From contig QPMI01000453.1 in assembly GCA_004431415.1 (NCBI GenBank), positions 598,330 through 662,329 on the forward strand: 64,000 nucleotides of DNA, in the 5' to 3' direction. Under the pieces are notes generated by a model. It saw only the letters and a list, made by a program, of their open reading frames with translations, was not told where the DNA came from and made no database searches. Both the position numbers and the translations under genes were made by a program. Source of the DNA: Cyanophora paradoxa CCMP329. Taxonomy: Eukaryota > Plantae > Glaucophyta. This document shows positions 32,998 to 61,822 of the stretch, in pieces; within the stretch, counting starts at the first letter, position 1; each line of letters opens with the position of its first letter.

Positions 32998-33092
32998 ACA
33001 CATATTGAAAAACGAATTTAAATCCCTCGTTCATCTCGATCGCTTCGCGATCTCGATTCACTCTGGATTTAAATTCGTTTTTCAATATGTGT
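32998..33092. other. Left terminal hairpin: 28-bp perfect stem around a 39-nt insert with inner stem GATCGC-ttc-GCGATC
   Basis: ACACATATTGAAAAACGAATTTAAATCC (32998-33025) is the exact reverse complement of GGATTTAAATTCGTTTTTCAATATGTGT (33065-33092). Confidence 0.9.
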
Positions 33093-33782
33093 TAATTTAA
33101 TACAAAAATACATATTTATCGATTAATTTCTTTAACTTTTTATGCAAACTTTGTATAAATTAATGCAAACTTTGTATTAAAATGATAAACGCGTTTAATT
33201 TAATGCATATTCACGATTGATTCAATCGATATTATATCGATAGATTATGTTCTTTGTCGATTACATATATAACTTCGATTGATTAACATTAAACTACTTA
33301 AAGAACGATATAATCGCGATTAATTCGCATAAATTCGCATAAATTCGCATAAACTCGATATATCTCATCGGTATTGAAGTAGACCACCGCCCATTTTGTA
33401 TCGGAAAACGCAAAAACTGTCACAGAGTTGCATTATGTCCAATTAAACAATCGATGGGATTGCGGATTTACATTTTTGCACCGAAAAAGTGTCACAGAGT
33501 TGCATTATGTCCAATTAAACAATTGAGAAGATTGCGCGATTTTCTATTGGAATATATCGGAACTGCATCATGTCCAATTAAACAATCGATGAGATTGCTG
33601 ATGAACATTTTTGCATCGAAAAACTGTCACTGAGTTGCATTATGTCCAATTAAACAATCGATGAGATTGCATATGTTCTATAAAACAGAATAATTGAGAT
33701 CAAGTGTGACAGGTAGTATTCAAATGATATTCAGTAAGAGATAGTTTTGTTTTTGAGAAAGTCAGTAAGAGGGGTGGAATGT

Positions 33783-34223
33783 CTGTGACGCCTGTGACGG
33801 CTGTGACGCCTGTTTTCAGAAGTCTGTCATTTTTGAAAATTTTAAAAAGTTTGAAAGTAGGTGTCACAGGCGTCACAGGCGTCACACTCAATTAAATTAG
33901 GTGTCACAGCGAAATTGCAGACCATTTCCAGTAAGACAACTTCGCATTTTCGGAAAGGTGGATTAATGGATAGTGTTTTGTAGGTGTCAGAGGTGTCACA
34001 AGACGGATTTCAGTAAGACAAGAATATATTTTTGAATATCTCAGTAAGAGAAAGAGATTCCATTTTTAATTGGGTGTGACGCCTGTGACGGCTGTGACGG
34101 CTGTTTTAAGAAGTCTGTCATTTTTGAAAATTTTAAAAAGTTTGAAAGTAGGCGTCACAGGCGTCACAGGCGTCACAGTCAATTAAAGAGGCGTCACAGT
34201 CAATTAAATAGGTGTCACACCCG
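33783..34223. promoter_or_regulatory. Two inverted-iteron modules in the left TIR (putative replication origins)
   Basis: Each is (TGTGACGSC)x3, a ~50-bp AT-rich spacer, then (GGYGTCACA)x3-5; located at ~33783-33909 and ~34066-34223. Function is inferred. Confidence 0.6.
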
Positions 34224-34278
34224 ATTATCTGACCATTTTCAGTAAGACCATCTGAAATTCTGAATTTCTCAGTGTCAA

Positions 34279-34680
34279 CTAACTCGGAAATCGCAATACT
34301 CTATGTTTCTCCGATTTCTCCAACCCTGAAAACACACCTGTTATTCTCTCATCTATCTCATGAGATACTCTCGTGGTTTTCCTCTCTGCTTCTAATCCAC
34401 AACTGAATATATCAATCGCCAACATACCTTCATTTGAGTAACAATGAGCAGTGCAATGGCTCTCATCCAGCAGAAGAACCATTGCAAAACCAGGAGGAGA
34501 AATACCACCATCGAAAATCTCGCAATGCTTGTGAACTACTCGAATACCTTGCTCTTGAATAATAGTTTGCAAGAACTGCATTAACCACCTGGTTGTTGTC
34601 TCCAAGTCCTCCATTCCTACTGCTAATTGGGTTCTGAATTTGTAATCCAGCATCACATGGAAGCCTCGATGAGTATTCAT
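34279..34680 (-). CDS. speD: Prokaryotic-type pyruvoyl-dependent S-adenosylmethionine decarboxylase proenzyme (AdoMetDC family)
   Basis: 133 aa; GFHVMLD...GFAMVLLLDESHCTAHCYSNEGMLAIDIFSCG retains the E-S autocleavage site, the HxxxH motif and the catalytic Cys. Confidence 0.9.
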   Translation of the reverse strand: MNTHRGFHVMLDYKFRTQLAVGMEDLETTTRWLMQFLQTIIQEQGIRVVHKHCEIFDGGISPPGFAMVLLLDESHCTAHCYSNEGMLAIDIFSCGLEAERKTTRVSHEIDERITGVFSGLEKSEKHRVLRFPS

Positions 34681-34682
34681 TT

Positions 34683-34871
34683 ATGAATAATTTAGAAAAA
34701 TTAAAAAACGCGATTGGTAGAATGCGAACCATCTTAGCAAGAGTGCTACCATATGAGTTGGTGGATATCATTCTGCTGCACTACCACAAGACCTGTCCAA
34801 ACTGCTTTGATACATGCATAATCACAAAGGGAAAATGGGGAAAGATCCTCATTTCTCTCTCAAAGATCTAA
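34683..34871 (+). CDS. Small hypothetical protein (LPYELVDIILL, CxxC)
   Basis: 62-aa ORF that exactly fills the gap between its neighbours. Confidence 0.35.
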   Translation: MNNLEKLKNAIGRMRTILARVLPYELVDIILLHYHKTCPNCFDTCIITKGKWGKILISLSKI

Positions 34872-35140
34872 TCAAAATATAATACTACTGGTTTATCATC
34901 TATCACAATTCCTGATGTAGTCTTTTTTCTGTAAGCATGAGAGGATTTCTTGTTGCACTCTCTGCATCCACTTCCCCTTACATGATTAAATGGGTAGGTT
35001 TGGAGGATCTTGTTGCATTTGAGGCATCTAACAGAGACCTTCTCTTGTGCTTTCTTATAGACTGTCTCACTGTAATCGAATTTAGCATCACCATGAACCA
35101 TCATTGCAGACTCTATGAATTTCTTTGTTTTATCATCCAT
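34868..35140 (-). CDS. Single Zn-ribbon repeat protein (DUF723-like)
   Basis: FIESAMMVHGDAKFDYSETVYKKAQEKVSVRCLKC...NHVRGSGCREC, the same repeat found in 55495-56460. Confidence 0.75.
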   Translation of the reverse strand: MDDKTKKFIESAMMVHGDAKFDYSETVYKKAQEKVSVRCLKCNKILQTYPFNHVRGSGCRECNKKSSHAYRKKTTSGIVIDDKPVVLYFD

Positions 35141-35167: not shown

Positions 35168-35997
35168 CTATGGAGCAGTATCCTGCCCGAAAATGGGGAA
35201 GTAGCGATTTGTGCCGTAATATTCTGCATATGTATTCTGTTTTGCAATAGCATCGGTTCTCTCAGCATAGAGAATGCATTTGTAGATACCAAATCTGGTG
35301 GCTCTCACCAAGAACTGGTAATCTTCAAGACCGAAATTCACACCATGATAAGCGATTCCGAAATTGTCATATGGAGTGATCACAACTGCAATATTTGGGG
35401 TTCCACCCTCTACTTGACAGACAGCATAAACATCTGGTGGGATATCGACAACCACCTTGTAGTGGTCACCAATCTCAACAAGAGAATCAACTACTGATGT
35501 CTGCTCATTCACAACAATTGGGAAGATCTTGATAATATATGGTGCATTCATACTGGGGACATAGGTGCGAATTCTGGTGTTGGGATCAATGGGATTGGGT
35601 TGATCATTTACGAAAAGAGGCGCACCAACAGCTCCACCAATCCGAAGACCATCACCAATATATGCTCCCCCGTTTTGCAGTTAATAGCTCCCGACCGAGA
35701 TTCAAAAGAATAAGTAGAAAGAGGATCACCATAACTGTCTGGGTCTCCATAGTGGGCAGAAAAGTTTGCATTTGTGACAAGGAGTTTCGTTGTCTTAACT
35801 ATACCATTATTTTTATCACACCTGAGTTCCTGCAATCTCAGTTTGTGGGTGGAACCAAATGTATTCATGGTAGGTTGCACTTCTGTGGATTGGAGACCTT
35901 CTACATCATCAAAGGTAGCATGCTGCAAAACGTGATTCGCAGGTGCTGCTAATGATAGTTGGGGTGTAATAATTCGTTCTGGTATTGGGGCAGCCAT
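35168..35997 (-). CDS. Putative virion accessory protein A (~276 aa once a +1 G is restored at 35667-35671); paralog of 36021-36914
   Basis: ORFs 35608-35997 and 35168-35551 join as ...KTGGAYIGDGLRIGGAVGAPLFVNDQPNPIDPNTRIRTYVPSMNAPY. The C-terminus VVDIPPD...VVITP...ILYAERTD resembles tail/fibre C-terminal domains. Confidence 0.65.
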
Positions 35998-36020
35998 TTT
36001 ACATTAAAGTGATATATAAT

Positions 36021-36914
36021 TTATGGGGTTGGGTCATCAATCACATCTGGTTCCTGGTAAAACCCTGTTGTGAAGATATCTGCAACGTTTACCCCTCGAA
36101 GTGCCGAAACAGCTGCTATATCTGTCCTCAGTCCCATAATCATAGTATTGTAAACTCCAACCTCAGTTACAAACAAATCATAGGTAAATGTCAAATTGTT
36201 ATAAACACAATATCCTCGACCGAAATGGTTTGATGCTTGAACAAAGAATAGGTAATTATGACCTGTTTGATTGTTGTTTGCTCTGCACATAGATAGCATT
36301 GCTGTGGGAAGCGGAATATTTCTTCTTACTCGATCAGTTCCTGTTATAATAACCAATTCCGAATTTTCAAGAGTGACAGAGGAAGCAACATAGAAATGTA
36401 GAAAAGGTTGCTGTGCAACTGGTGTATAGAAACGTATTCGTTGGGGATTCTCTACATTTTGTTCAAGAGTATCTGGGACATCATTATACGAAATTGAGGA
36501 TGAAAGTTGACCTGAAATTCGACAGCCACCCCCAATAAATGCTCCTCCTGATCTCACAGTAACAGCAGCAGAATTCTTATCGAAATCAAGGGCTTTCAGA
36601 TCAACACTGTAAGCATCAGGACCTCCATTAGTAGGTTGGAAGAAATTCGCATTTGAGACAAGGAGTCGAGTTGTTTTAACCACACCAGAATTCTTGTCTG
36701 CTCTCAGTTCTTTAACTCGAATAATCGAATTCTTATCAAAGGAGTTACCATTGGAATTGGGTCTCTCTGTTGATTCTAAACCACGAACCTCATCATTAAC
36801 TTCATGCTGGCGAAAGTGCATAGCAGGGGATCCAAGGGAATATATTGGAAGTTGAACTCGATTATATTCACCCATTGCTTCTTTTACTAAGAAGGAAAGA
36901 AAAATAAACACCAT
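36021..36914 (-). CDS. Putative virion accessory protein B; paralog of 35168-35997
   Basis: Shares ELRxDKNxGxVKTTxLLVxNANF and GGAxIGxGxRIxG with protein A; the C-terminal halves differ. Confidence 0.65.
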   Translation of the reverse strand: MVFIFLSFLVKEAMGEYNRVQLPIYSLGSPAMHFRQHEVNDEVRGLESTERPNSNGNSFDKNSIIRVKELRADKNSGVVKTTRLLVSNANFFQPTNGGPDAYSVDLKALDFDKNSAAVTVRSGGAFIGGGCRISGQLSSSISYNDVPDTLEQNVENPQRIRFYTPVAQQPFLHFYVASSVTLENSELVIITGTDRVRRNIPLPTAMLSMCRANNNQTGHNYLFFVQASNHFGRGYCVYNNLTFTYDLFVTEVGVYNTMIMGLRTDIAAVSALRGVNVADIFTTGFYQEPDVIDDPTP

Positions 36915-37223
36915 TCAAGCCAAAGCAATTAGATTGGATCCAAGAGATTGGTAAGCGGTTGTTAGACATTGGATGTTGGATGTCATCGCTTTGAGGTTAG
37001 AATCACATTCACCATATTTTGTTACTGGGTCACCATAAGCCGATTGCGCAAGGACATTAACCAAAAGGTTTTTATATTCATGAACAACCGGTGACAGTTT
37101 GTTGGTTTGCTGTATCGTTTTTTCGACAGTTTGTAGTGCGGCTACAAGTTTGATAGTATCGAATGCAAGAGCGACAGGCTCAGAAGAAGTAGAAGGAGTT
37201 CCACCGAGTGGATAGGTCGCCAT
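36915..37223 (-). CDS. Hypothetical helical protein (102 aa)
   Basis: ATG-start ORF abutting both neighbours in the same orientation. Confidence 0.6.
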   Translation of the reverse strand: MATYPLGGTPSTSSEPVALAFDTIKLVAALQTVEKTIQQTNKLSPVVHEYKNLLVNVLAQSAYGDPVTKYGECDSNLKAMTSNIQCLTTAYQSLGSNLIALA

Positions 37224-37226: not shown

Positions 37227-40200
37227 TTATACTGTGACATTTTTAATTTGGTCTATTTGACTTTGTAAATCTTTGCATTTCTGCGATAACTCCTTCACTG
37301 CTTCAATGAGAACAGGAATTAAACCTGTGTATTCAAGAGATAGGTAGCCATCGTCTTTTTTAACATTAACTACCTCTGGTATTACCTTTTGAACATCTTG
37401 TGCAATTAAACCTAATTTTGTTCCGTCTTTTTCGCTTCCAATTCGTTTAAAACTTACTCCTTCTAATCTCTCGATTGCTGAAAGAGCGCCGGTTATCTTT
37501 TTAATATCTGTTTTGTATCTTATGTCACTTCCTTGTGTTAAATACCCTCCTATCCACATCCATCCTCCATGATACATGTAACAAATATCAGTATCTTGTT
37601 CATTTCGGAATACAAGGGGAATATCTCCCCCTCCTTTCAAATATGTAGAAGTTTGGTTACCGAAATGGATACGATTATATCCATCACTTGAACTAAACCA
37701 AGTCCCCACAGATCCTGTTAAGATATTTGGTTTACTATAAACGTTATTCCAATGAATATAGCCGGTGTGACCACCATAACTATTTCCTACCCAAATTTTC
37801 ATGTAACTAATACCCATAATATGAACTCTTCCAATCTTTGGTCTAATCCGAATAGTGAGGAATCTATTTCCAAGATGTATTGGAACATTATTTAAACCAC
37901 TGTGGTTACCATCAGGCGATGTGGCGTATGGTTGATAACTATTCACTGATGTAATAAAAACTTCATTCCCTTGTCTATTAACTCCCCAAATTTCAAAAAG
38001 TCGTGAGTTAGTCCAAGGTAAATAGGTTAAAAATGCTGTTCCTGTGTGGTATCCATCGGGTATATCGAAGTCAATCCAAGCGGTAGAAGTTTCGTCATCA
38101 GATTGATTATTATGGACATATGAACCATAATTATAATATGGATCCCATGCTGTACTCCATGCCCATGTCCAACCCTCAGAACATCTATTAAATGCAATAC
38201 CTCCTACTGTTTTATCTGCTGTGTGAAACTTTGGGACATCATTACCGTTTATTTGGAGTTTGGTAGTAGCATTAATAGTGGATGCTGTAATAGTATTATT
38301 CACCCAAAAGTTACCGTTACCATATGATTTTAAGATTGCTGCATCCGCTGAGTTTCTAAATTCAATTGACACACCGTCAGCATTCGGTCTCCCTCGTATA
38401 TATGTGCAATCGCCATTACCAAACCAAATTCGCTCGACTGCATCTACTGATTTTAACCATGTATTTGTTGGCCATGTTGCTGTTCCTGGGAGGTCTGCGG
38501 CTGAGTAAAATGATGGTTTACTAAATACGTTATCCCAAGAGATCATGCCCAATTCATTATCAGTTGCTCTCTGTCTGCTCCACCCAAAAACACCCGTTAG
38601 ATAAATGCGACCTTTTCGACCTTGAATGTATATCTTTGTGTAAAACTCACAATTGATTGAGGCAAACAAAACAGTATTATGTGTCCCATCTTGATAAACT
38701 GCCTGGATTCCCTGATAGGCATTTACTCGTTTTAAGAAATGTTGATATCCATTAGTTGTTTGCCCATAGATATCGAAATATCTGCAATTATGCCAAGGCA
38801 TGTGCTGGATGTAAAATGATTTCATACCTGTGGGGACATTCCACCTCATCCAACAGCCGCTACAATCTTCATCATTTTGTGGTGTTGTATAACATCCTGT
38901 TTGTCCTGTTCTTGCGATCCAATTCAAATTCCAGTTATTCGCGCTTCTATCTGTCGAAACCACATCTAATTGATCGAATTCATAACCTTTTGGAATTGTG
39001 GTTCCACCAATTTGTAAAGTGGTAGCATTTACAGTTCCTGTTACAGTTCCACCTGTGAGAGGTAGATAATTCGCAAGAGCTGATGTTAATTCGGTATCTG
39101 TAACAAAATCTGTAACAGCTAACTGTAATTCTGTATTTGTAACATAATCTTTGTTTTCTAAATAATCATCTGTAACAACACCGGAAAGGGTTGTATTGTG
39201 TAAGTTTTTCGCCGCCATTCTCTGATTGACTTCTAAGGCGCCACCTGATGTCGTTTTTATCCACGCCATCTCACATTTCCCATGATCATCTGTGGGTTGT
39301 CCCACAACAGGAAGGTAGTTTACAACTTTCTCCCTTGTGAACACAATTTTAGGTCTTGCTCCATCATATGCGCTTTGATCTGTAACGTTTATTTGAATAG
39401 CTGCTGAAAAATCGGCTACTTGTCCTGTTTCTCCTGGGTGATAATTCGTTACATAGATACTTGGGAAAGTATCATTAACTCCCACATTAAAATCGCCATC
39501 ATAAACTCCATTAACAATTGGATCCCTGGGTAATCTTACTGCAAGAGTTCCCACCATTGGGGTTCCTGTTTGACCTGTAAAAGTCCCATTGAGACTAACA
39601 TAATGATCATTCAAATACAATCTTTCAGGTGTATTACTTGATTGGTAAAGAGTGACTCCATTAAAAACGTTTCCGATTGCATTCAATTGTGCAAAAACTG
39701 GCTGTTGATCTATTTCGTCCCAATTGTGCCTATGTGTGAAATCTGTTATTTGCGCTTTTGTGTGAGTATGGTCAAAATCTGTAATATCTGCTTTGACATG
39801 TTTGTGTGCAAAATCTGTGATTTGCGCTTTTGTGTGAGTATGGTCAAAATCTGTAATATCTGCTTTGACATGTTTGTGTGCAAAATCTGTGATTTGCGAT
39901 TTTGTGTGAGTATGGTCAAAATCTGTTATGTCTGCTTTAACATGTTTATGGTCAAAATCTGTGATCTGATCTTTGGTGTGTGTGTGGTTTTGTATCCAAC
40001 CTTGAACCACATTTGATGTTGTATAGTTTGGAATCACAGCATTTGAAGAGACGATTAAATTTTTTATATGAACATATTCAGCCGAAATTCGTAGATTATC
40101 AGGATAGTAAAGCGGCTGAGTTATTGGAAATCCATATGTCTGTTGAATGTAATATCTCACCTGTTGTTTCTCGCCTTCTGTCAAAACTCTATTGAAAACA

Positions 40201-46790: not shown

Positions 46791-49700
46791 TTAGAGCCCA
46801 AATGGAATGCTGTGAATTCCATCGTCTAATATCTTCCTTTTGCTATCGAGTTGGTTTAGAGCCACCCTTCTGCTCTCCAAATCATATAGGTTGTGGTCTT
46901 GCCTTCGCTTGTTTACTACTGCTACTGTTTTGGTGATGCCTTCAAACAGGCATCTCTTGAAATCATCAAAGTGAACCTCTTTGGAGGAAGTCCCAGACAT
47001 CTTTATTTTATCAAAGGTCTCAGTTCTGAAAGCATAGAGTTTCGATCTCAGACCTACATACTCCACAATCTTTGCATTTGGAAACTCGTTTTTATATTTA
47101 CCTGGAATCAAACGATTGCTCCTATCAAAGAGAGGGTGGGTGGGATCATAATTACTGCAATCCAGGTGTCCAGCAATTCGCTTCATCTCATTATTTAGAT
47201 CATTGGTATGCAGCAGGAGACAGAAAGAATCTGTATCATGGAATAGTAGCTCTGCTGTTTCCCAAGTTCTCCTCACCACATCATAAAAGAACCTGCTATT
47301 GTGGAGTTTCGCGAAATCCAGCACAAAAGCACCAATTGCAACAGGTTTATCTAAGTGAACATGCTTGGAATACATCTCAAAGGCAACAGCATTTTCGTTT
47401 AATACATTGGTTGCCTTGATGAGTGGACTTGCAGCATATTTCTTGCAAAGTTTCTCACTGTTTGCAATCTTTACCACAGAGCGACCCCTGCATGATTCGA
47501 GGCATTTACCATAGATTGCATTGTTCATTAATTTAAAGAAGTCACTCTCGAATCTGGACATAGATTGGCGCCTCAGTTTCGTATTTAGATCAATATAACT
47601 CTTCATGAATGCAGAGGTTGCAAATGAGAGAACCCTGTGAACCTTCGTGATTATAATACCTTTGCTCACAAGATAGATCAAGAGAGGTTGGGAAATCACA
47701 TAGTTATTTTGGGTGAGAATGTTGCAGTGAGTTTGGGGTCTTTGCTTATCTTCTCACCTGTGATATCCAGTAACTTTCTTTGATACCCACCCAGCATTTC
47801 GGTGGTGACATGTCTTTATTAACTACAAGTGGAAAATCGTAATGATCTGTGAGAGTTTGTGGGTATTCCAGGTCAACTTCAATAAAGGCACTTCGTCCTT
47901 GGGTCTCTTTAAGTGCCTCTGAGACATCTTCCCATCGAAAATCTCCAATGGGCAGTTCTTGACTGAGAGCAAAACCATACAGATTATTTGCATCCAAGAG
48001 AACTATATGGTCATCTGGGTTTTCCACCTTTGCATATCGAGTAGGCATTGTAGCAAACCCACCTCGAATTGCTCTCTCAATGAATTCGTATTGCCCTACA
48101 TCACTGATCTGCTCGATCTTTGCTCTGGTATAAATGAGCATTGCATCCCAGGATAATCCAGGAGCCGAAACATAGTGGGCAGGATCCAATCCATATTGGG
48201 AAAACGCCAATTCTCGGAAAGTCTGGAATTTACTCATAAGATCACCAGAATCCACTGCCTGGAAGTCCATGAAGTGCGAAGCATCTATGAATTTCCACAT
48301 GCCCCATTGCAGGGAGAGGTATTGATCGAAATTCTTGCTCAGGATCTCAACACGAAGTTTATCATCTTGCTGTGCAATTTTGCGGAATATTTCGTGTCCA
48401 CATTCATCCATGTGATCCACCACAATTGCTACTTTCGTTTGCTTTGAGATTCTCCTGTGGAGGTTGCAGTTTCGACATGCTTTTCCAATAAAGCTCCTGA
48501 TTGATGACAATGGTCTCTACTGGGAAATTCTCATGGGTAAATCGTTCAGCACAGATATAACAGTGTTTAGTGATCTTGTATTGTGCTTTCTGCTCTTCTG
48601 TGAGTGGGTGCATTGGAATATTGGTGAATAGAGTGCGGATTACTTGGGGTCTGATCTCTGTGAGAGTGGTAAACAGAGCACCAAGTGGATCTGATCCCTC
48701 GAAATAATGAGAGATCACCTCATCCCCCATCACAACTGTTAGAGAAACCGATTTTACCTCTCTCTTGCTGCGGTTCTCATCAATTGGAACCGAGTGACTA
48801 TCCATTTTCACATAGCAGATAGTGGGAAGCCACACAGTTTTGCGAAGATGTTGAAGCCCAAATGCAATGTGACTTCCAGATTTGGGCATTTACCTTTGCT
48901 CTCCCTCCAATCAATGCAGCGATTGCTTCTAATGAATCCAGCTTCTCCTGAGTTCTGAAACGAGACAGGCAGGTCTCACATAATAAATGCGACCATCATG
49001 GGCTTTATCAAAGGTGGTTTTCAGAGTCGACTCAGAGACATATGGTGATATAATGCCTCTATCATCCTCTTCGTTTTCGATTAATAAAAGGTTAATCTTG
49101 GTCTTTCTCCTCGGGTTGCTGGATTGTGAGAGGATAGAAGCACTGTGCTTGATTATCTGCACCATAAATGTTGATTGAGTTCAGGGTTCTGCTCCTCAAA
49201 TCGATCAATGATTCTGCATCACAGGCAACTGGAAACTGGATGCCTTCGAAATTGAGTTCGTTTAACCATCTTCTATACTGGCTGGGTTCATTGCTCTTGT
49301 GTTTATTAATGTCTTTCGGTGCAGGTAAGCCAAGATTGCATACTTGAAGCAGTCTTGACCATCAATATTCTTGACATTCACAGTTGCTCTCTTTATCCAA
49401 TCCACTCAGGTGTTGAGAAGAAGCAACCACCCACAGGAGCATAAGACATTATACCACTCTCAGCATCTCATGCGATCCAGTCTGTAACTGTCACCTGCAT
49501 CATCTGTTCCTGCATTGCTTGAAGTGCATTTCGCAGTTCAACATCAATATTTCGTGATCTTGTGATGACAAAGTAATCACTATAAATGAATTGGTGATCC
49601 ACACCCTTGGATCACTCACTTTGGTGAATTACAAATGAAGGTCAACCGAGTCTTAATTGCTCTCAGGTCTTGGAGTTTCTGTCTGAGTCTCTGGGTAGAG

Positions 49701-50038
49701 TAGTGCAATTCTCTCCAAGAATTCAATCCCATCTTGGATAACCTCCCCTCTTGCTCGATAGGTAACCAAGAGTATGCTTTGTTCATTGCTTCCCCATCTT
49801 CAATCTCGGTTCAATTGTCCCAACCTTAAACCTTCATCCCTGAATTCCTCCATTTCTCAAAACGATCATAAGCGATTGTAATTTCTGTGAGTTGAGATAA
49901 TCTTGGTCTCCTATCCAGGATTGCTGCCTGGCGATCATATTCGAATTCTGTAATATCACCAGTAACTAAAAGGGTTCCTAAAAGACCGAGTATTTCGTTT
50001 TTCTTTTCTTTGATGATTCTATTTGATTGGCGGGGCAT
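46791..50038 (-). CDS. Protein-primed family B DNA polymerase (Maverick/Polinton type), split by multiple frameshifts; N-terminal limit uncertain
   Basis: RATVNVKNIDGQDCFKY, HCYICAERF...CRNCNL (endo VII-like Zn finger), YGLDPAHYVSAPGLSWDAML, AIRGG, LLDANNLYG, FFKLMNNAIYGK, FHDTDSF and GLRSKLYA. Confidence 0.92.
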
Positions 50039-50093
50039 CTTTTACTTTAAGGGAACATATTATTTTGGGCGTTTTAAACGCATTTCGCATTTT

Positions 50094-50285
50094 TCAGGTT
50101 CTGATAATTCGCACATTCGTGCCTTTGGGGACATATACATTCACTGTGTCGAGTCTGCTTGCATAAACACGCTTCTTTTGATAGGTTCTACCATAACCTG
50201 CTCTGATCTTTGCAATATAATCCGCCACCTCTGCAATATCATTCTTTTCGACAAGCTGCTGCCGAATTTCATCAAAATAATCCAT
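50094..50285 (-). CDS. Hypothetical protein (63 aa)
   Basis: ATG ORF between the internal iteron module and pPolB. Confidence 0.45.
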   Translation of the reverse strand: MDYFDEIRQQLVEKNDIAEVADYIAKIRAGYGRTYQKKRVYASRLDTVNVYVPKGTNVRIIRT

Positions 50286-50425: not shown

Positions 50426-50585
50426 TTAATTGGGTGTGACGCCTGTGACGCCTGTGACACCTGTTTTCAGAGGTTTGTAGATTTTTGAAATTTTAAAAAG
50501 TTTGAAAATAGGCGTCACAGGCGTCACAGGCGTCACACTCAATTAAAAAGGTGTCACAGCTGTCACACAAACCATTTACAGTAAG
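50426..50585. promoter_or_regulatory. Internal inverted-iteron module (putative origin), a diverged copy of the TIR module
   Basis: TTAATTGGG(TGTGACGCC)2TGTGACACC, AT-rich spacer, (GGCGTCACA)3CTCAATTAAAAAGGTGTCACAGCTGTCACAC. It lies just past the helicase stop codon. Confidence 0.7.
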
Positions 50586-50604: not shown

Positions 50605-52996
50605 TCAATCAGTATTAGAATCGATTCTGTTTTGTTTACTCATCCCACCTTCAACATCACTGTCATCCACCAACTTGCGACTATGCTTCTTTTTGATCCC
50701 AAAGTAGCCACGAGCAAGAACACCATTGACTCGCTTTCTCTCAGCCTTCACATTAAAGACTTCGCGAAGTCTCTTCAAGATAGTGCATTCTGTGATTTTC
50801 TCATCAGATTTGCCCATGTGATCATCTTAAAGTGACTGATAATGGACTCACTTGTGGCGAAATCCCCTTGACTCTTGGTGAGTTCATAACTCTCACGAAT
50901 CCATTCTCCAATCTTGTCATTCTCATTGAAATATTCAACACCTTGATCAACAATGGACTGGGGTGGTTTGGTGACGAATTCATTGAGAGAATGGGTTCTC
51001 CACATTTCCAGGAGAATGGACATATGCGCCATTTTATAATCGTCATCATTCTTCATTAGGCGCATGAGAGTGGTGTCTGCTTTCTTCTCACCAGGCTGAG
51101 GATCGACCTTGAAGACATTTTCGAATCGGTAGTAGATAATTCGCCTTTGAATTGCTGCATCTGGTTTACTGATTCCCAAGTTGTCATTTGTGGACAAGAA
51201 CAACTGGAACATGGGAATGAATGTAACAAGATCTTTGAAAAGAGCTCGAACCTTCATCTCATTCCCACCAGTAACCTGTTTGATTTTGTTCAGTTGAAGC
51301 ATATCACCATCTTCTGCTTCATTACTGAAAACAATTCGTTTACCAAGAATGCAAGCGAGTTCTGGGGAAGCCTCTGACGAACTCTTCTTGGGTTTAGTCC
51401 AATATGTCATGTCCAGTGACCCATAATACTCACCAAATGTGTCTTTCACCAACTCTTGGAGCAGTGATTTCCCATTTGCTCCAATTCCAGTCCAGCAAGT
51501 GTATCTCTGATTTTCTGTCAAACCACTCAGGGCATAGGCGATTAATCCCAGCATGAATTCGCGGTCTGTATCCGATTCAATAATATCTGCATAGATGGAT
51601 TTAATCTTTGCAACCTTCTCTTGGTCAATTTCTGTGGTGTAATCGTAGCCAACAGTCTTACTCACCATATCATCTGGGAGTCCCTGTCGAAAAGTCATGG
51701 AGTTCAGGTCAAACACACCATTTGTAAATCCAATGATGTTGGGAACAGTATCAAGTCTCTCGAAAAAGGTCTTGTCACTGAACAGAACTGAAAGATCAGA
51801 CATAAGTGCAGTTCTGTATGTAGTCTGTTTGAGGCTCTTAGCAATTCCCAGCAGAATCTTTGACCTTTCCTCCAAGGAATTGCGGTTCTCTTCATCACGA
51901 AGTGCTCTCTGTGCGAGTTGAACAGAACGTTGAAGATAAACTGGACAGACCTTGCAGCTCAAACAGAGAAAGATTCGCTTCCCAGTTTCATCCATCTCCC
52001 AAATCCCACATACATCATTGAACTTGAACCAGGTCTTGTTGGAATACTTGTATTTGTCTTGCAGAACAAGATAGGCAACCTGTGCAACATCATAATGGGC
52101 ACCATCAGATCCAGCAGACCGATCAATCAGATTTTCGATCTTCACATCTGTCTCTTCCTTCACACGAACTGTGATGCTTCGCTTTTTGCAGTTTGCACTG
52201 TAACTCGAAACAATATATTTGTCCTTCTCCTTCCCTTGAACAATATACCAATTGTTCGAGTCATGGCTTCCCTTGCAGCAGGGACAGATCAGACCTTTGT
52301 TCTCAGCAGTGAAATTGTATCCCATCTTGGTCTCATTGATGATTGTGGGCAAGATGAAACCGAATTCTTCCAGTTTAGAAAGAATATGTTTCTGCAAATT
52401 CTCCTCAGCGCACCTCTCAAAATAAGAATGTGCACCTTTGGGAATTCGTAGTTGTCAACAATCCACTTTTGCAACTCAGCAGTAGGTTCATTTAACTCAC
52501 ACTCAGATGCCCATGGCTCTCTGATCCATGTTTTGTTGGGACTTGGACAAACATTAATTACCCCAGCAGTCCCAGTGGATGCAATCGTTTTGCAGTCGAT
52601 CTTGGGGTTTCCTTTGAATGCACCTGCTTTATCCCAGATCTTAATGGTGTCGAATTCAGCAGGTCGAGCGAAATAAGCATGATATCCTTTTTTGGTTTTA
52701 GCAAGTGGATTAACACCACCGAAATCATCAGGGAATTGCTCCTCGAATTTGGCGAAATCCTCCTCTTGGTCGAAGTCAATAACCATGATATTACGAGCAA
52801 GAATGCCCCAAGCAGTATATTTACCGGATTTCAGGGCTTCATCGAATTTATCCCAAGTCCAGGATCCGTCTTTATGAGCGAAAAGCGGTCTCTTGGTATC
52901 AGGATCAACAGGAATTACGAGATTCTCAGACAGGACATCGTCTTCACGAAGCCAGTCAACAAGGCGTTTCAGGGATTTCTTGGCGGCAGCGTTCAT
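50605..52996 (-). CDS. Bifunctional primase-polymerase (Prim-Pol/AEP) fused to a D5/P4-like SF3 helicase, with two frameshifts
   Basis: N-terminal WGILARNIMVIDFD...KTKKGYHAYF; Zn finger CPCC..HDSN; IGFTNGVFDL; Walker A GIGANGKS; Walker B IVFSNE; FLSTND; C-terminal RVNGVLARGYFGIK in ORF 50605-50817. Confidence 0.9.
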
Positions 52997-53189
52997 TTCG
53001 AAAATCGGGGCTTCTTACACTTAATGGAGAAATTAATTTCTCCGGATCCTTGTCATTTTTTGGCGGCTAACCTTTAAATACCTTTGGGTTTTCCGATTGG
53101 CGCTCGATACATGGTAATGATCCATCGAAAAGTCGATTGATCATGGTAACAAAAAGGATTCAGCGGATATCTGGGACTTTGGGGGCGGT

Positions 53190-53417
53190 TCAGTATTTTC
53201 TGGGACGACCAACTGGGCGTTTTACTGGATTATTGGGATCCATCTCAGCAGCTTTCCTGCGATAATATCGTTCCAGTGCCTTTTTACGATATAATTTACG
53301 AAATTCCTCATCTTGATAACGTTTCTGGAAATACAAGCGGTCATACAACCTTTTCCTCTCATTGGGATCCATTTCGCTCATTGCAAGTTCGAATTCGACC
53401 ACAGATTCAGTTTCCAT
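53190..53417 (-). CDS. Small basic protein with C-terminal AT-hook
   Basis: ALERYYRRKAAE...KRPVGRPRKY. Confidence 0.65.
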   Translation of the reverse strand: METESVVEFELAMSEMDPNERKRLYDRLYFQKRYQDEEFRKLYRKKALERYYRRKAAEMDPNNPVKRPVGRPRKY

Positions 53418-53618: not shown

Positions 53619-53852
53619 TTAATTACCGAGATTTAATTTCGGATCTGTGAAAGATACAGACCTTCGCCTCACTGTCTCTGTTTTAATATGCTCTTCGAAA
53701 TCCACCGAGTCTGTGGATAATCTCCTTCCACCAGATCCATGGCTTTCAGTGTCTGAGAACTCGATTTCGACTTTGGTGTCACAGCAACCACTGTGACAAT
53801 TGCTCACAATGTGGAGATTAAACATCTCAATGATTTTGCGCAGAAAATCCAT
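53619..53852 (-). CDS. Hypothetical protein (77 aa)
   Basis: ATG ORF in the co-oriented gene run; HIVSNCHSGCC. Confidence 0.5.
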   Translation of the reverse strand: MDFLRKIIEMFNLHIVSNCHSGCCDTKVEIEFSDTESHGSGGRRLSTDSVDFEEHIKTETVRRRSVSFTDPKLNLGN

Positions 53853-55425: not shown

Positions 55426-55494
55426 GGCTTTGTAGATCTTTCTTATTAAAGATAGATAAAAATAACGAACTGTTACTGATAATGGTTTTACAGA

Positions 55495-56460: not shown

Positions 56461-56542
56461 ACACCTTTTCTTTAAGTAGAAATCAAGGATGAAAAATGAA
56501 TCAAATTTTGCAGACTTAGGTAACAAAAACATACATTTGTGA

Positions 56543-57913
56543 TTATAGATTGATTCGCCTCAGGCCGTCCTTATCGACTATAATGAAACTGTGCATGAGA
56601 GCACGAACATTAACAGTGATTGTCTGGTCAGAAGGCATGTATAGAGTGAGGAAAGAGGAGGAGGAGTTCGTGAGATCAACATAGCCAGACTGGGCAATGT
56701 TGCGAATCGCTTTCTCTCCATCAACACAGAATGGTAGACCACTGAGGACATATTTGTCTGCAACCTTGTCCATATTTGAGCACTTGAAGGCATCCGCAAT
56801 TAATTCGGCACCTTTGAGGAGAGGGATGGGCTCAGTAGCATAGAGACGTTGACCATTAATTTCAACAGTGAAAGTAATGTCTTTTGAGTTAGCATGCGTT
56901 TTTAGGACACTGTGGGAACCATTGAAACCATCTATACCTGCGGCATCACGAACTGAAACAAGAAGACCATAGACAAGACCAGAGATCTGTGACAGGTTAA
57001 TACGATTTGGCTGAGCATTGCCTTTTGCAGCAAAATTGACACTGTCTACGAAACCAATATCCAGAGCAGGAATAGCCATACCAGTGGTCTTCACCTTCTC
57101 AATGACAGTAGCAAACAGTTCATCAGAAACATTAATAGCATGCATGTAAAGACGAGGAGAAGTGACTTTAATTTCGGGGGTTGTTCCAGAGATGGTGAAA
57201 GTGGTGATTTGTTGACCAACATGGGCAAGAGTAGCATTAGCAGTAGCACCAAGTCCATCATCCTCTGTCTTATCAGCAGCTGTTCCACCAACAACTGGAA
57301 GAGCACGACCACCATAAGAAGTCTCAACATAACCCTTTCCAGCATCCTTGAACCAGACAGTTACCACCATTTCTCCTGAGAGAGCACCAAGAGGTAGGTA
57401 GTGGTTTAGCCATGGGACTGGGATTTCAACAAAGAATGAACCACCAAGTCGGTTGGTTCCATGAGCAGGGATACCATGAACCATTCCCATTGAACGCTTC
57501 TTCTTGGCGAGTTGATCCTCACTGTAATAGATAAGAGGGAAATGAGCAAGGAAATCAGAAGGCACATGGAATGTGTAAGATCCATAGGTGATTTCAAGTC
57601 GAGAGACAAGAGCACCAACTGGGCGAACGTATCCATTGCGAACAAGGTCGGTATCACCAGCAAAAGTGACAGCTGGAAGGTCAAACGCAAGTTCGAGTTT
57701 TCCACAGAAATTGTAGCGAGGGAGCTTGAACGAAATGCGATTTCCAGCATTATTCTCGAAAGTGTTGCTTGGGTTCACAACAACAAGAACTGGCTTCGAC
57801 TTGGATTCAAGACCAAGCATGAGAGAGTTGTCCAGGAAGAACGCCTTGGCTTCTTCCGGGGTTGTTAGAGCTTCTTTCAGAGAAAGACGTTGGAGGGTCG
57901 AAGTAATATCCAT
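56543..57913 (-). CDS. Major capsid protein (double jelly-roll), ~456 aa, intact
   Basis: Size and position between the ATPase region and the pentons; NAGNRISFKLPRYNFCGKLELAFDLP...GALVSRLEITYG resembles DJR N-termini; QSGYVDLTNSSS near the C-terminus. Likely start is MDITS at 57913. Confidence 0.8.
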   Translation of the reverse strand: MDITSTLQRLSLKEALTTPEEAKAFFLDNSLMLGLESKSKPVLVVVNPSNTFENNAGNRISFKLPRYNFCGKLELAFDLPAVTFAGDTDLVRNGYVRPVGALVSRLEITYGSYTFHVPSDFLAHFPLIYYSEDQLAKKKRSMGMVHGIPAHGTNRLGGSFFVEIPVPWLNHYLPLGALSGEMVVTVWFKDAGKGYVETSYGGRALPVVGGTAADKTEDDGLGATANATLAHVGQQITTFTISGTTPEIKVTSPRLYMHAINVSDELFATVIEKVKTTGMAIPALDIGFVDSVNFAAKGNAQPNRINLSQISGLVYGLLVSVRDAAGIDGFNGSHSVLKTHANSKDITFTVEINGQRLYATEPIPLLKGAELIADAFKCSNMDKVADKYVLSGLPFCVDGEKAIRNIAQSGYVDLTNSSSSFLTLYMPSDQTITVNVRALMHSFIIVDKDGLRRINL

Positions 57914-57967: not shown

Positions 57968-58976
57968 TTACGCAAAATTCGCAATAACCGGATAAGATGG
58001 ATGGGTTTCCGCCATCCTCCTCTTGAAATATTCATACACAGGATCACCAGCAGGTTCATCACCATATCGAATTTCGAAGGTGAGATGCACAGGTTGACCC
58101 TCGAAATCAATTGGTTCATTAATTGCATTCACAATGTCAACCGAAAATGTGGAAAGTCCCAGATTCTTGTTATAGTATTTATAAATCGGATGGGCTTCTG
58201 TCGAATTATAAACGACATGCTCACCATAATCTTTATCTGGAACCACGATTTTGTGGAAATATCCAGTGAGGAGACCATCACCACATTGAACCAGATCACC
58301 CAACTCCTTTACTCTCACAAACAGAACACTATCCCTGGTCTTTTCAGGTTCAAATGAAGATATGATACCATGCACCATCGACCCAGTAAAGATACCATCA
58401 GTCAGAGTATTATAAACTTGTGATTGGATTGGTGTGTTACCATATCTCCCAGGATCAAGACCAAGCAGTCGAGCAGAACTCAAAACCTCTGAATCTGTGC
58501 CTGGGTTGGGTTAATTGCGGTTGAGAAAGCCAGGTAAAACGGTATGGTTGAATGGAATATAACTCGTTTCAGTGTATCATCCCATTTGCAACGAATAGCT
58601 ACTGCTGGTTCTCTCAATGCAAGTTTGGAGTTAATTACATTCACCAGTTGTTGGTGGTTTTGAATGGGTGTGCTGCGACTTATCACAATGTGTTTCCATG
58701 ATTCATAATCAGCAGCAGGTCGATCAGTTGGAATACCAGTGCTTCCTGCACCAGAAAGATATTCAGACCAATAAAGGTAGAATGCATTATCTATTGTCAC
58801 ATCTCCTACTTTGGTTTCACCACTCACCATGGGGATGCTGTTATAGAATTCTGCTGAGACCAGTCTTACTGCTCTTACAAATTCATATGTGCTGGGGAGG
58901 CGAGCAATAAACTCGAAGTAGGTCCATCTCCCGAAATTGTATTGAAAGAGCTCACTTCAATGTAATCCACAGGCAT
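57968..58976 (-). CDS. Minor capsid (penton-like) protein 1, two frameshifts
   Basis: Joined reading MPVDYIEVSSFN...SSFIARLPSTYEFVRAVRLVSAEFYNSIP...LSTFSVDIVNAINEPIDFEGQPVHLTFEI fits the PLV/virophage penton pattern. Confidence 0.72.
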
Positions 58977-59003
58977 CTTCTTTATCTATAAACATATATT
59001 AAA

Positions 59004-59933
59004 ATGATTCGGCTGGTCAATATAGATAGCAGAGACCGATCAGATGGACAAATAGAAAACTCCTACAAAGTTTCACTCACAACCCCAGTGACCAAACCAA
59101 GAGAATGTCGAGTTTTGTATGCAGAGATCCCCAACAGCATCTATAACTCCATTGGAACAGACCACCTTCTTGTCAGATTCTACTACCAAGGCATCTCTGA
59201 AACCAAGCAGGTCTTCCTTCTCCCAAGTGGTTACATAAATCAAGGTCATTTCGGGTCACCACTCCATATAATTATGGTCTGAATTTCACATTTACTGGGA
59301 GCAACAATCTCACATATGCATTCAAGGTCTACTACAACCCTACCTCCTACAAATTGGAGTTTTACAGTAATGTTCAATTCGATATGGTTGCATCTACACA
59401 GAGATTGGGTAAACTTCTTGGTGTGAGTTCAGTGGAGTGGGTGGCTTCCACTGAACAGATTTACGATTTCCCAGAGTCTGCAAGGTCTTTATATGCCCCC
59501 GAGAATTTCCTTTATTTCGCAGGAATACCAATCACCCAAACCATCCCCAATGGGGAATCACATTCACAGGATATGAATTCGAGGCATCTCGCTTAAACTA
59601 CAAGTTAGAAGCTTCCAAGATGACAGATATGAATGCAGAACAGTATTTATACATGCACATTAAAGAACTCTCCCCATTTGCTACAAACCACAATATTGTC
59701 CCACAATCTCAACCACAGAATCAAGGAGCGATTCTCAGATTGCAATTAAGTAAAGATATTGGACAGTATGTTTATCACAGTGGAGAGCACAGTGAATACA
59801 TAAAAATAACCGATCGAACCTTGTGATTAGAGAGTTAACAGTTGAGTTTCGCGATTATTATGGTGATCTTGTAGATATGAATGGAATTGACAACTCATTC
59901 CAGTTAGAGTTCTTGGCTATTGGTAATGATTAA
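59004..59933 (+). CDS. Minor capsid (penton-like) protein 2, several frameshifts
   Basis: MIRLVNIDSRDRSDG...SYKVSLTTP...VLYAEIPNSIYN...QYLYMHIKEL...IRELTVEFRDYYGDLVDMNGIDNSFQLEF. Confidence 0.8.
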
Positions 59934-60219
59934 ACCGATCCTGATAGAAGAACTCCCCATCTGTCTCGAAAATATTAAGAATGGGACTCTTTCGATCTTC
60001 TGTATACCATCGGCGAATTGTCTTATCCCATTTAGCACCATTCTTTTTCAAGAATCTACAAAGAGTTGATCTCCTTGTAATTCGCAATCCCATCTCTTGA
60101 AAGATCTCATAATGATCTTGTATTCTTTTCACAATCAAGATGTAAGTCCCATGGAAATTGTGATATTGCTGGTTAATCGGCATGTTTCCTTTACAGCATG
60201 ATGGGAAATCGTTTGTCAT
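59917..60219 (-). CDS. Hypothetical protein with a GAKWD-x4-WY motif (DUF5710-like)
   Basis: FLKKNGAKWDKTIRRWY. Likely start is MTNDF at 60219, just outside the right TIR. Confidence 0.45.
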   Translation of the reverse strand: MTNDFPSCCKGNMPINQQYHNFHGTYILIVKRIQDHYEIFQEMGLRITRRSTLCRFLKKNGAKWDKTIRRWYTEDRKSPILNIFETDGEFFYQDRFNHYQ

Positions 60220-60230
60220 TTTTTGGCGAA

Positions 60231-61822
60231 ACGAGAGTATCTCATGAGATAGATGAGAGAATAACAGGTGTGTTTTCAGGGTTGGAGAAATCGGAGAAAC
60301 ATAGAGTATTGCGATTTCCGAGTTAGTTGACACTGAGAAATTCAGAATTTCAGATGGTCTTACTGAAATGGTCAGATAATCGGGTGTGACACCTATTTAA
60401 TTGACTGTGACGCCTCTTTAATTGACTGTGACGCCTGTGACGCCTGTGACGCCTACTTTCAAACTTTCTAAAATTTTCAAAAATGACAGACTTCTGAAAA
60501 CAGCCGTCACAGCCGTCACAGGCGTCACACCCAATTAAAAATGGAATCTATCTCTCTTACTGGGATATTCAAAATATATTCTTGTCTTACTGAAATCCGT
60601 CTTGTGACACCTCTGACACCTACAAACACTATCCATTAATCCACCTTCTCGAAAATGCGAAGTTGTCTTACTGGAAATGGTCTGCAATTTCGCTGTGACA
60701 CCTAAATTAATTGAGTGTGACGCCTGTGACGCCTGTGACGCCTACTTTCAAACTTTTTAAAATTTCAAAAATGACAGACTTCTGAAAACAGGCGTCACAG
60801 CCGTCACAGGCGTCACAGACATTCTGCCCCCCTTACTACTCTTCTCAAAAACAGAAATATATCTTACTGAATATCATTTGAATACTATCTGTCACACTTG
60901 ATTTCATTTATTCTGTTTTATAGAACATCTGCAATCTAATCGATTGATCAATTGGAGACCATGCAACTCTGTGACACCTAAGTTATTGAGTGTGACGCCT
61001 GTGACGCCTGTGACACCTACTTTCAAACTTTTTAAATTTTCAAAAATGACAGACTTCTGAAAACAGGCGTCACAGCCGTCACAGGCGTCACAGCCGTCAC
61101 AGGCGTCACAGACATTCCACCCCTCTTACTGACTTTCTCAAAACAAAACTATCTCTTACTGAATATCATTTGAATACTACCTGTCACACTTGATCTCAAT
61201 TATTCTGTTTTATAGAACATATGCAATATAATCGATTGTTTAATTGGACGTGATGCAGTTCCGATATATTCCAATAGAAAATCCGCAATCTGATCGATTG
61301 TTTAATTGGACATAATGCAACTCTGTGACACTCTTTCGGTGCAAAAATGTAAATCCGCAATTCCATCGATTGTTTAATTGGACATAATGCAACTCTGTGA
61401 CAGTTTTTGCGTTTTCCGATACAAAATGGGCGGTGGTCTACTTCAATACCGATGAGATATATCGAGTTTATGCGAATTTATGCGAATTTATGCGAATTAA
61501 TCGCGATTATATCGTTCTTTAAGTAGTTTAATGTTAATCAATCGAAGTTATATATGTAATCGACAAAGAACATAATTTATCGATATAATATCGATTGAAT
61601 CAATCGTGAATATGCATTAAATTAAACGCGTTATCATTTTTAATACGAAGTTTGCATTAATTTATACAAAGTTTGCATAAAAAGTTAAAGAAATTAATCG
61701 ATAAATATGTATTTTAGTATTAAATTAACACATATTGAAAACGAATTTAAATCCAGAGTGAATCGAGATCGCGAAGCGATCGAGATGAACGAGGGATTTA
61801 AATTCGTTTTTTCAATATGTGT
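60231..61822 (-). repeat. Right terminal inverted repeat (1592 bp) with three iteron modules and a terminal hairpin at ~61728-61822
   Basis: Reverse complement of the left TIR, with an extra ~275-bp duplicated block (~60693-60968 vs ~60969-61250). Ends ...TTCAATATGTGT. Confidence 0.95.

Follow-up and report, generated by a model that had tools for sequence, protein, structure and literature searches.

What kind of virus occupies the low-GC island in this stretch of the Cyanophora paradoxa genome, and why does it carry two replicase genes? An earlier note had called the element a distinct lineage of Polinton-like viruses (PLVs) with two replication modules. We analyzed the whole 64,000-nt stretch, referred to here as the window. 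The GC content was 0.34-0.44 across 33-62 kb, compared to 0.46-0.86 elsewhere in the window, and the island at positions 32998-61822 was 28.8 kb in length and was bounded by 1.4- and 1.6-kb TIRs. These values lie within the range used for PLVs (a 14-40 kb genome with TIRs). The left and right TIRs were 96-97% alike (mismatches at 9/590 and 26/745 bases), with unequal numbers of sub-repeats. The element started with a short AC repeat, and its 95-nt terminal hairpin had a z of -11.2, with 0/200 shuffles folding equally well. The boundaries and repeats are as follows.

32690-32997, no strand: left host flank, a GC-rich tandem repeat of ~180 nt with unit 2 truncated by the element
32998-34374, no strand: left TIR, 1,377 nt
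32998-33092, no strand: terminal hairpin, 95 nt, perfect 28-bp stem
33775-33908, no strand: palindromic unit, left TIR copy 1; 9-bp repeats flanking an AT-rich spacer, origin-like
34066-34199, no strand: palindromic unit, left TIR copy 2; 9-bp repeats
50426-50585, no strand: internal palindromic unit, 88-90% identical to the TIR unit, left-TIR orientation
60231-61822, no strand: right TIR, 1,592 nt; three palindromic units plus a terminal hairpin
61823-64000, minus strand: right host flank, an intron-rich membrane-protein gene truncated at the element end

The genes for capsid formation and packaging were located in the right part of the element.

54643-55425, minus strand: A32-like packaging ATPase, uninterrupted (PF04665, Pox_A32, E 3.5e-11)
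56543-57913, minus strand: MCP, double jelly-roll, 456 aa, uninterrupted (profile, model and fold searches)
57968-58956, minus strand: candidate penton 1, two frames (motif and position; hhalign E 0.0055, probability 6.6%)
59004-59930, plus strand: candidate penton 2, four frame pieces (motifs)

The 456-aa protein was indeed a double jelly-roll MCP, and its profile matched a solved MCP with an E value of 1.2e-6. A single-sequence AlphaFold model gave a pLDDT of 35; the model used here was built from a seven-sequence alignment (pLDDT 63.6, pTM 0.69). The repeat-rich, non-capsid protein P0005 was excluded from the MCP alignments, and alignment A3 omitted fragments P0006 and P0007 and included P0011. 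The best Foldseek match had an E value of 1.5e-19, and the Z score was 30.0 for PBCV-1 (rmsd 3.2, 355 aligned), compared to 17.2 for mavirus, 17.4 for Sputnik, and 9.8 for adenovirus. The top fold matches were nucleocytovirus MCPs, but this closeness is only relative because the structure library is biased, with no PLV, Maverick, or aquintovirus capsid identifiable among the solved structures. The Atlas matches to the MCP had a low recognition score. The MCP did not match a profile built on five ORFs of capsid size in Maverick-type relatives (best E 1.3) or PF21738, which three relatives matched at E <1e-40, and no virophage capsid Pfam matched in the element in a search whose control did match PF21915.

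The packaging ATPase was also confirmed, and both it and the MCP were single open frames, as had been proposed. In the case of the two claimed pentons, both proteins carry penton-like motifs, and their size and position also fit, but no search with either candidate gave a significant match (best, the hhalign match of penton 1). A maturation protease of the Ulp1/adenain type was not detected among 658 six-frame pieces (best E 1.1) in a search that recovered 5/5 held-out controls. In addition, no Pfam peptidase of the Ulp1/adenain clan matched in the element, and a protease signal was absent from the 297-aa and 244-aa ORFs. The earlier claim of no protease therefore stands for a capsid protease, but pPolB bears a vOTU-like Cys/His pair. 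A reduced morphogenetic module without a protease is an Aquintoviricetes trait, and the element shows it. The remaining genes, apart from the replicases, are listed below.

34279-34771, minus strand: AdoMetDC-like gene, two frames (PF02675, E 6e-11)
34868-35140, minus strand: short zinc-ribbon ORF (PHROGs, E 6.6e-11), similar to the N-terminal end of the 55495-56280 endonuclease
35168-35997, minus strand: two-frame gene, paralogous to the 297-aa ORF (tblastx)
36021-36914, minus strand: 297-aa ORF
36915-37223, minus strand: predicted 102-aa ORF
37227-43154, minus strand: giant fibre, at least four frame pieces (PF13884, S74, E 5.9e-16; PHROG tail fibres)
43266-44744, plus strand: patatin phospholipase-discoidin (F5/8) fusion (PF01734, E 1.3e-15; PF00754, E 7.3e-7)
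44966-45208, plus strand: predicted 80-aa ORF
45359-46661, minus strand: rve (DDE) integrase whose N-terminal part lies in a different frame (PF00665, E 0.0011, under the cut-off)
53190-53417, minus strand: predicted 75-aa basic ORF
53619-53852, minus strand: predicted 77-aa ORF
53880-54614, minus strand: 244-aa charged ORF
55495-56280, minus strand: free-standing zinc-ribbon endonuclease (PHROG endonuclease, E 3e-71)
59917-60219, minus strand: 100-aa ORF with a weak DUF5710 match (E 7.8e-4, under the cut-off)

These matches supported the AdoMetDC, patatin-discoidin, and giant fibre genes that had been reported. The AdoMetDC-like protein contains the self-cleavage motif, ESH. The fibre pieces likely form one gene of ~1,970 codons with internal duplications, PTR-like repeats, and an S74 chaperone at the C-terminus, and the fibre centre varied between copies. 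The rve integrase was upheld as well, since its Pfam match was backed by a PHROG transposase match (1.2e-11) and by a tblastn search with integrases of relatives (E 9e-20); no chromodomain match was found in it. The zinc-ribbon ORF and the endonuclease N-terminus were 29-35% alike in tblastx. The endonuclease sits in a ~1.06-kb cassette next to the 3′ end of the MCP gene. Depth and joints indicate that only about one copy of the element carries it, and a single-copy endonuclease gene in this position was not found described in the literature searched. The gene at 35168-35997 had no Pfam or PHROG match, an Atlas search with the 297-aa ORF gave no usable match, and the 75-aa ORF ends in an AT-hook-like motif.

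The element does not represent a new PLV lineage, and its family is already catalogued. The earlier note had named grouping inside a described family of like gene content as a refutation, and in substance this is what we observed. Specifically, the nearest MCP was Cyanophora paradoxa protein P0001 (gene_47449; 60% identity over 461 columns), which Table S2 of PMC10120064 lists as a confirmed viral MCP, and the gene families of the element recur in a 2025 table (PMC12220804 Table S6), which likewise has no protease. The MCP identity exceeds the 25% clustering threshold and places the element within the published Cyanophora paradoxa set (PMC10120064 Tables S2 and S4; PMC12220804 Table S6, section 13), which shares its MCP family, its gene families, and the lack of a protease. 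By eye, the MCP of gene_64235 looks closer than that of gene_47449. In Table S6, the 156 glaucophyte elements include none with a protease (0/156), 139 with an A32 ATPase, 85 with rve, 49 with pPolB, 40 with D5_N, 8 with Prim-Pol, 37 with S74, 89 with a lipase, and 66 with AdoMetDC, and the text of PMC12220804 names the discoidin-patatin fusion. Such elements are estimated to make up 7.3% of the Cyanophora paradoxa assembly, with 366 capsid genes. The published tables give group counts rather than maps, two MCP clusters appear without a group name in the two papers, and the Cyanophora elements are counted there but neither described nor placed. In the parts of PMC10120064 and PMC12220804 covered, we found no account of pPolB occurring together with Prim-Pol/SF3, of an exonuclease loss, or of the palindromes, and the supplementary data may hold maps or placements. 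Our own searches found eight MCP matches and one ATPase match (86%); no relatives with genomic context were found in IMG/VR scans (MCP, ATPase, helicase, and P0008 queries) or in metagenome scans (P0011 and MCP pair queries).

The two replicase genes lie next to each other.

46791-50285, minus strand: pPolB, several frames (DNA_pol_B_2, Pfam, E 4.5e-6)
50605-53014, minus strand: fusion of Prim-Pol (AEP) and a D5/P4-type SF3 helicase, three frame pieces

Both were present, as the earlier note had stated. The Prim-Pol/SF3 protein matched PF09250 (Prim-Pol, E 2.3e-5), PF08706 (D5_N, 2.4e-10), PF19263 (1.6e-7), and a PHROG primase (E 3.4e-49), and its catalytic and Walker motifs were visible. The pPolB was 28-35% identical to Maverick-type pPolBs and had intact polymerase motifs A, B, and C and an intact vOTU-like Cys/His pair, and none of ExoI, ExoII, and ExoIII was found in the window copy. 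ExoII and ExoIII were kept in 7/7 related pPolBs; the strict ExoI pattern was missed in 4/7 of these relatives too, so the absence of ExoI alone is weak evidence. One short-read contig crossed the shortened exonuclease region, with two gaps. The loss was read on the window copy, and the read differences considered were the best-supported ones, with 448 more beyond them. The absence of all three motifs from this pPolB was not found described in the literature searched, and exonuclease loss has been tied to helicase gain (PMC11161782).

Because pPolB lacks exonuclease motifs, the two proposed replication modules are better read as one likely replisome, as in mavirus. We think it probable that the element is an integrated multi-copy PLV with a DJR capsid and no maturation protease, in which a pPolB that lacks the proofreading motifs would be assisted by the primase-helicase; joint action of the two replicases is a prediction. 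No single read contig spanned both genes, and for other copies we deduce their physical linkage from equal depth. As a counterpoint, Prim-Pol occurs in just 8/156 glaucophyte elements (PMC12220804 Table S6).

An unlikely alternative is that a replicase replacement is midway, with pPolB decaying and Prim-Pol/SF3 as the working replicase, priming from terminal hairpins and palindromes. Such a replacement would agree with the eroded exonuclease, with pPolB being the most fragmented gene of the window, and with the perfect 95-nt hairpins, which fit a fading pPolB because passages of bioRxiv 2026.07.28.741278 report terminal hairpins with non-pPolB replicases and call double replicases transient. 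However, the polymerase motifs and the vOTU Cys/His pair are intact, the pPolB contigs matched the other core genes in depth and in divergence (~1-2%), and the indel rate of the window explains the pPolB breaks.

The internal palindromic unit, the sole copy outside the TIRs, separates the Prim-Pol/SF3 end from the pPolB start. Exact 9-mers occurred 29 times versus 0.47 expected, with 24 in the TIRs, 5 in the internal unit, and none elsewhere. The palindromic unit alone was kept internally and the rest of the TIR was absent, which fits selection for that unit. The 9-bp repeats may be like the phage P4 origin motif; a literature search showed no occurrence of that motif in the papers listed. An origin-like palindrome in both TIRs and once between replicase genes was not found described in the literature searched. 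The tripled 9-mer was also seen in four IMG/VR contigs, which were rejected: all four are unrelated and phage-like, gave no tblastn match with the element, and have the 9-mer within longer runs of coding repeats of a Val-Thr-Pro-like type.

It is somewhat more doubtful still that two elements fused, namely, an 11-kb right half (Prim-Pol/SF3, ATPase, MCP, and pentons) and a transpoviron-like pPolB-rve module with accessory genes, leaving the internal palindrome as a TIR remnant and not an origin. The unit does lie exactly between the modules in left-TIR orientation, pPolB and the integrase are Maverick-like and the MCP is not, and repeat-bracketed replicases are on record, one of them in a Cyanophora contig. 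Yet a simple remnant sits poorly with the retention of the palindromic unit and nothing else of the TIR, and the halves were alike in depth in three runs. Fusion as history is compatible with the one-replisome explanation.

The flanks raised the issue of whether the window holds a single insertion. No target-site duplication (5-6 bp, a Polintoviricetes trait) was found at any boundary shift tried. The contexts of the two flanks were unlike each other, as if they came from separate loci, and the rest of the right-flank membrane-protein gene was not found in the left 33 kb of the window. Two insertions are probably combined in the window copy, and such a mosaic, rather than a family trait, may be behind the missing duplication. 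A host contig entered the right TIR by just 27 letters in three runs (the bridging bar was 31 letters), and none of the read contigs listed bridged the left junction. The element is complete from TIR to TIR in gene content, as had been claimed, but is not one proven insertion.

Core contig depth in run X1 was 985-1,929, compared to 54-61 for single-copy contigs, and this read depth points to ~20-40 near-identical copies in the genome, contig depth being a rough guide and not a copy count. Six core X1 contigs differed from the window at only 35/3,666 bases, so the expansion is recent, and the suggested recent activity is upheld in this form. Four single- or low-copy X1 contigs showed 0 substitutions and 6 gaps relative to the window in ~2,850 bases. 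The window frameshifts are likely mostly assembly errors; pPolB, Prim-Pol/SF3, the fibre, AdoMetDC, both penton candidates, and the integrase start were split over several frames. Run X20 (RNA or possibly DNA) was left out; its coverage was largely confined to the parts with the highest copy number and did not extend to the host flanks. It is very improbable that the two-replicase layout is an assembly artefact joining halves of different elements: the missing duplication, the unlike flanks, the TIR mismatches, and the many indels would allow it, but all 30 bins were covered in three DNA runs, core contigs of both sides had similar depth, the genes show no redundancy and come with a single TIR pair, and a switch of path from one family copy to another accounts for the flanks with gene content unchanged. 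The endogenous PLV in Cyanophora is a real integrated multi-copy DNA virus.

With a single replisome, the vOTU domain of the excised element would cut a terminal protein from pPolB, which has a candidate terminal-protein domain, and this protein would prime at the AC-repeat ends. Prim-Pol/SF3 would load on the palindromes of 9-bp repeats, where it would separate the strands and prime again. The A32 ATPase would package the progeny genomes, the fibre and the patatin-discoidin fusion would serve in cell entry, and the rve integrase would insert the DNA. Host copies are likely silenced by CpG methylation. Cyanophora paradoxa is culturable, its methylome is published, and its genome contains endogenous giant-virus regions, which puts silencing and helper dependence within reach of study.

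Should the one-replisome reading prove right, the proposed exonuclease-for-helicase trade would gain an independent case, and the palindrome is a concrete DNA site whose binding is testable in vitro. A broader and speculative picture, which we consider unlikely, is that glaucophytes have a separate lineage of small integrating viruses, so far without a name, whose capsids are nucleocytovirus-like. In this lineage, a Maverick-type pPolB would have lost proofreading, as a third, independent exonuclease-for-helicase trade, and would now act together with a primase-helicase firing from internal iteron palindromes, and AdoMetDC (66/156) could drain SAM against host CpG silencing. If true, these viruses would show on a small scale how replication moved from protein priming to a primase-helicase on the path toward giant viruses.

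Compared to known systems, the element shares TIRs, a pPolB with a vOTU-like domain, an rve integrase, and an A32 ATPase with Maverick/Polinton elements and adintoviruses (Polintoviricetes). It differs from them in having a separate Prim-Pol/SF3, an unmatched MCP, no Ulp1/adenain protease, no exonuclease motifs, and, in the window copy, no target-site duplication. Mavirus and EMALE-type virophages likewise have a pPolB with a reduced exonuclease, a separately encoded SF3 helicase, and an rve integrase, and form low-GC islands in a GC-rich protist genome. Unlike these virophages, the element has neither the virophage-type MCP (Z 17.2 versus 30.0) nor the protease that define Virophaviricetes, its helicase bears a Prim-Pol domain, and its pPolB is of Maverick length and type. 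The Halocafeteria virophages and PLVs (bioRxiv 2026.07.28.741278) and the multi-replicase polisuviruses (bioRxiv 2026.10.13.758929) have other hosts and other capsid types; in the passages of these papers covered, palindromes occur mostly with non-pPolB replicases, and exonuclease erosion was not found. The nucleocytovirus-like PLVs (Zora, Zephyr, and Alpensee) and Mriyaviruses are described in bioRxiv 2026.06.19.733378, whose main text does not name Cyanophora. An uncontrolled Pfam search of the element gave no HUH or VLTF match. These viruses resemble it in PLV size and, as far as the biased structure library allows, may do so in a capsid fold nearest to nucleocytoviruses, and rve, pPolB, or primase-SF3 occur among them.

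The element lay in an island of 34 to 44% GC within a eukaryotic genome that was otherwise GC-rich and intron-rich. Inverted repeats of 1,377 and 1,592 nt flanked it. They started with identical letters at both element ends, were 96 to 97% alike when aligned, and differed in sub-repeat number; there were 9 mismatches between them in 590 bases and 26 in 745. The features that matter here were as follows.

32998-61822, the element, a Polinton-like virus (PLV)
32998-34374 and 60231-61822, terminal inverted repeats (TIRs)
46791..50285, minus strand, pPolB gene
50426..50585, palindrome between the pPolB and Prim-Pol/SF3 genes
50605..53014, minus strand, Prim-Pol/SF3 gene
55490-56550, endonuclease cassette
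56543..57913, minus strand, gene for the 456-aa major capsid protein (MCP)

Pfam matches among 31 ORFs were AdoMetDC, S74, patatin with F5/8, DNA_pol_B_2, Prim-Pol, D5_N, and Pox_A32, together with a weak rve match. PHROGs added a primase (3.4e-49), a transposase, and an endonuclease (3e-71), and the largest gap in the gene map was no more than 319 nt. Two genes are putative pentons, a likely assignment judging from their motifs and position. The AdoMetDC gene reached with its 3' end into the inner end of the TIR (34279-34374 and 60231-60326), and this stretch was accordingly duplicated at the right end. In the host sequence, about nine 199-nt units with 86% GC stood in tandem (29600-31500), and one ORF had an ERp29 C-terminal domain (20539-21453; E 4.6e-14).

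The 456-aa protein had no match in Pfam. As the earlier note had proposed, it was recognizable as a double jelly-roll capsid protein: a seven-sequence profile matched a solved MCP (E 1.2e-6), and a structure model (pLDDT 63.6) gave Z scores of 30.0 with PBCV-1, 17.4 with Sputnik, 17.2 with mavirus, and 9.8 with adenovirus. The model also had nucleocytovirus capsids as matches in BFVD, where the top match was unnamed (E 3.5e-21), and in the PDB (E 1.5e-19).

A search of representatives with the MCP returned eight matches altogether. The closest relative, which was 60% identical and the sole close one among 7,998 candidates, was a Cyanophora paradoxa protein that HHpred had already marked as a viral MCP (98.47, E 7.5e-7); the same source counted 366 MCP matches in two unnamed clusters, 7.3% of the assembly (PMC10120064). 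This capsid match, rather than the host genes, points to Cyanophora as the likely host. Of 156 glaucophyte elements tabulated elsewhere, Pox_A32 was counted in 139, lipase in 89, rve in 85, AdoMetDC in 66, pPolB in 49, D5_N in 40, S74 in 37, and Prim-Pol in 8, and all nine protease columns were 0 (PMC12220804 Table S6). A discoidin-patatin fusion had also been named for glaucophyte elements (PMC12220804), and Cyanophora relatives of an adintovirus-like element were noted earlier (PMC8502044). Membership tests placed the element in neither the Maverick nor the virophage groups. The description of the element and its gene set in the earlier note largely stood, but its claim of a distinct new PLV lineage did not, given the 60% identity to a catalogued MCP and the tabulated gene families with proteases in 0 of 156. 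The element is a member of a catalogued yet unplaced glaucophyte PLV family. The available text of a study that defined PLV groups did not name Cyanophora (bioRxiv 2026.06.19.733378).

The reported lack of a maturation protease held up. Pfam found no peptidase in a further 111 frame pieces, and an adenain-like profile, built from five ORFs of related contigs, gave a best E of 1.1 over 658 six-frame pieces; a leave-one-out control picked up 5/5 of the proteases that had been held out (E 4e-4 to 4e-38). A strongly diverged or heavily broken protease could escape such a search. The pPolB carried a vOTU-like Cys motif (E 7.7e-5), with the His motif across a frame break; a vOTU-like protease of pPolB has been proposed to free the terminal protein (PMC11161782). 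As separate observations on related contigs, L003 (IMG/VR) paired a Sputnik-type virophage capsid with a Maverick-type pPolB that kept ExoII and ExoIII, and L008:2740-4248 was a single 503-aa ORF with adenain-like protease, rve integrase, and chromodomain together. This may be a genuine fusion or reflect an overlooked stop.

Depth and differences were taken from 4 of the 24 listed sequencing runs. In run X1, core contigs had depths of 985 to 1,929 versus 54 to 61 for single-copy contigs, and ratios in runs X7 and X10 were similar. These values pointed to roughly 20 to 40 near-identical copies, depth being no count. Over 3,666 bases, six long X1 core contigs and the window disagreed at 35, which fits a recent expansion. 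Among the best 12 of 96 and 12 of 13 indels, one-letter differences coincided with the places where the reading frames of pPolB, Prim-Pol/SF3, the two pentons, AdoMetDC, and the fibre break, and four single- or low-copy X1 contigs showed 0 substitutions and 6 gaps over about 2,850 bases. Because the indels fell at the breaks and gaps occurred without substitutions, assembly error can explain the frame breaks, although some could be genuine in the window copy.

No target-site duplication of 3 to 8 nt was present at any equal boundary shift tested, and none of 5 to 6 nt at independent shifts. The left flank was a truncated tandem repeat, and the right flank was a truncated membrane-protein gene that had no continuation within the left 33 kb of the window. 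We infer that the window joins two insertions via their common element, through the assembler or recombination.

The endonuclease cassette had single-copy depth (54, 46, and 37), and joints that skipped it had depths of 264 to 942. The last MCP codons were echoed downstream of the cassette, and these codons differed in other copies. It is likely a free-standing homing endonuclease directed at the MCP 3' end. The fibre centre (39992-40947) had about two-copy depth, with far deeper neighbours (39024-39851 and 41094-42749) and many joints; receptor-binding modules appear to be shuffled among copies. Apart from the TIRs, the deepest bins (7,000 to 29,000) were those of two unassigned paralogous genes at 35168-36914, which therefore are likely common to many more elements than this subfamily.

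C. paradoxa has 32% CpG methylation, enriched on viral-origin genes, and endogenous giant-virus regions (PMC12344493). The element was poor in CpG, with observed/expected values of 0.21 to 0.72 in its genes (patatin and integrase having the lowest) versus 1.11 in the left host flank. Silencing and helper dependence of the element would be plausible. A role of AdoMetDC against methylation is speculative; its product is described as inhibiting methylation reactions (PMC2933235), and viral homologues can use other substrates (PMC10407285, PMC9992855).

The points of greatest interest, besides the single-copy endonuclease, were the exonuclease loss and the origin-like palindromes. Seven frame pieces matched a pPolB profile in the correct order, with intact motifs A, B, and C. 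ExoII and ExoIII were kept in 7/7 relatives of pPolB, whereas the window protein had no ExoI, II, or III and was about 100 to 110 residues shorter in this part, which one short-read contig traversed with 2 gaps. The Prim-Pol/SF3 protein had visible catalytic and Walker motifs. The left TIR contained two copies of a unit of inverted 9-bp repeats with an AT-rich spacer, the right TIR three, and one more copy lay immediately beyond the helicase gene (29 exact 9-mers versus 0.47 expected). This layout resembles origins that SF3 initiators bind. We lean toward a combined mode, in which protein priming would start replication at the element ends and the helicase would be loaded, with re-priming, at the 9-bp-repeat palindromes. 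The element also had terminal hairpins of 95 nt, which would allow self-priming in place of protein priming.

Double replicases and repeat-bracketed modules, with one Cyanophora example (bioRxiv 2026.10.13.758929), and pPolB alongside a D5 primase-helicase and palindromes at the termini (bioRxiv 2026.07.28.741278) have been described. We found no published description of the exonuclease loss or the 9-bp-repeat palindromes in Cyanophora elements in the main texts available; supplements may contain one. In mavirus and Tlr1-like PLVs, exonuclease loss accompanies helicase gain (PMC11161782). The element fits this pattern as one more example, in its case with a Prim-Pol/SF3 protein.
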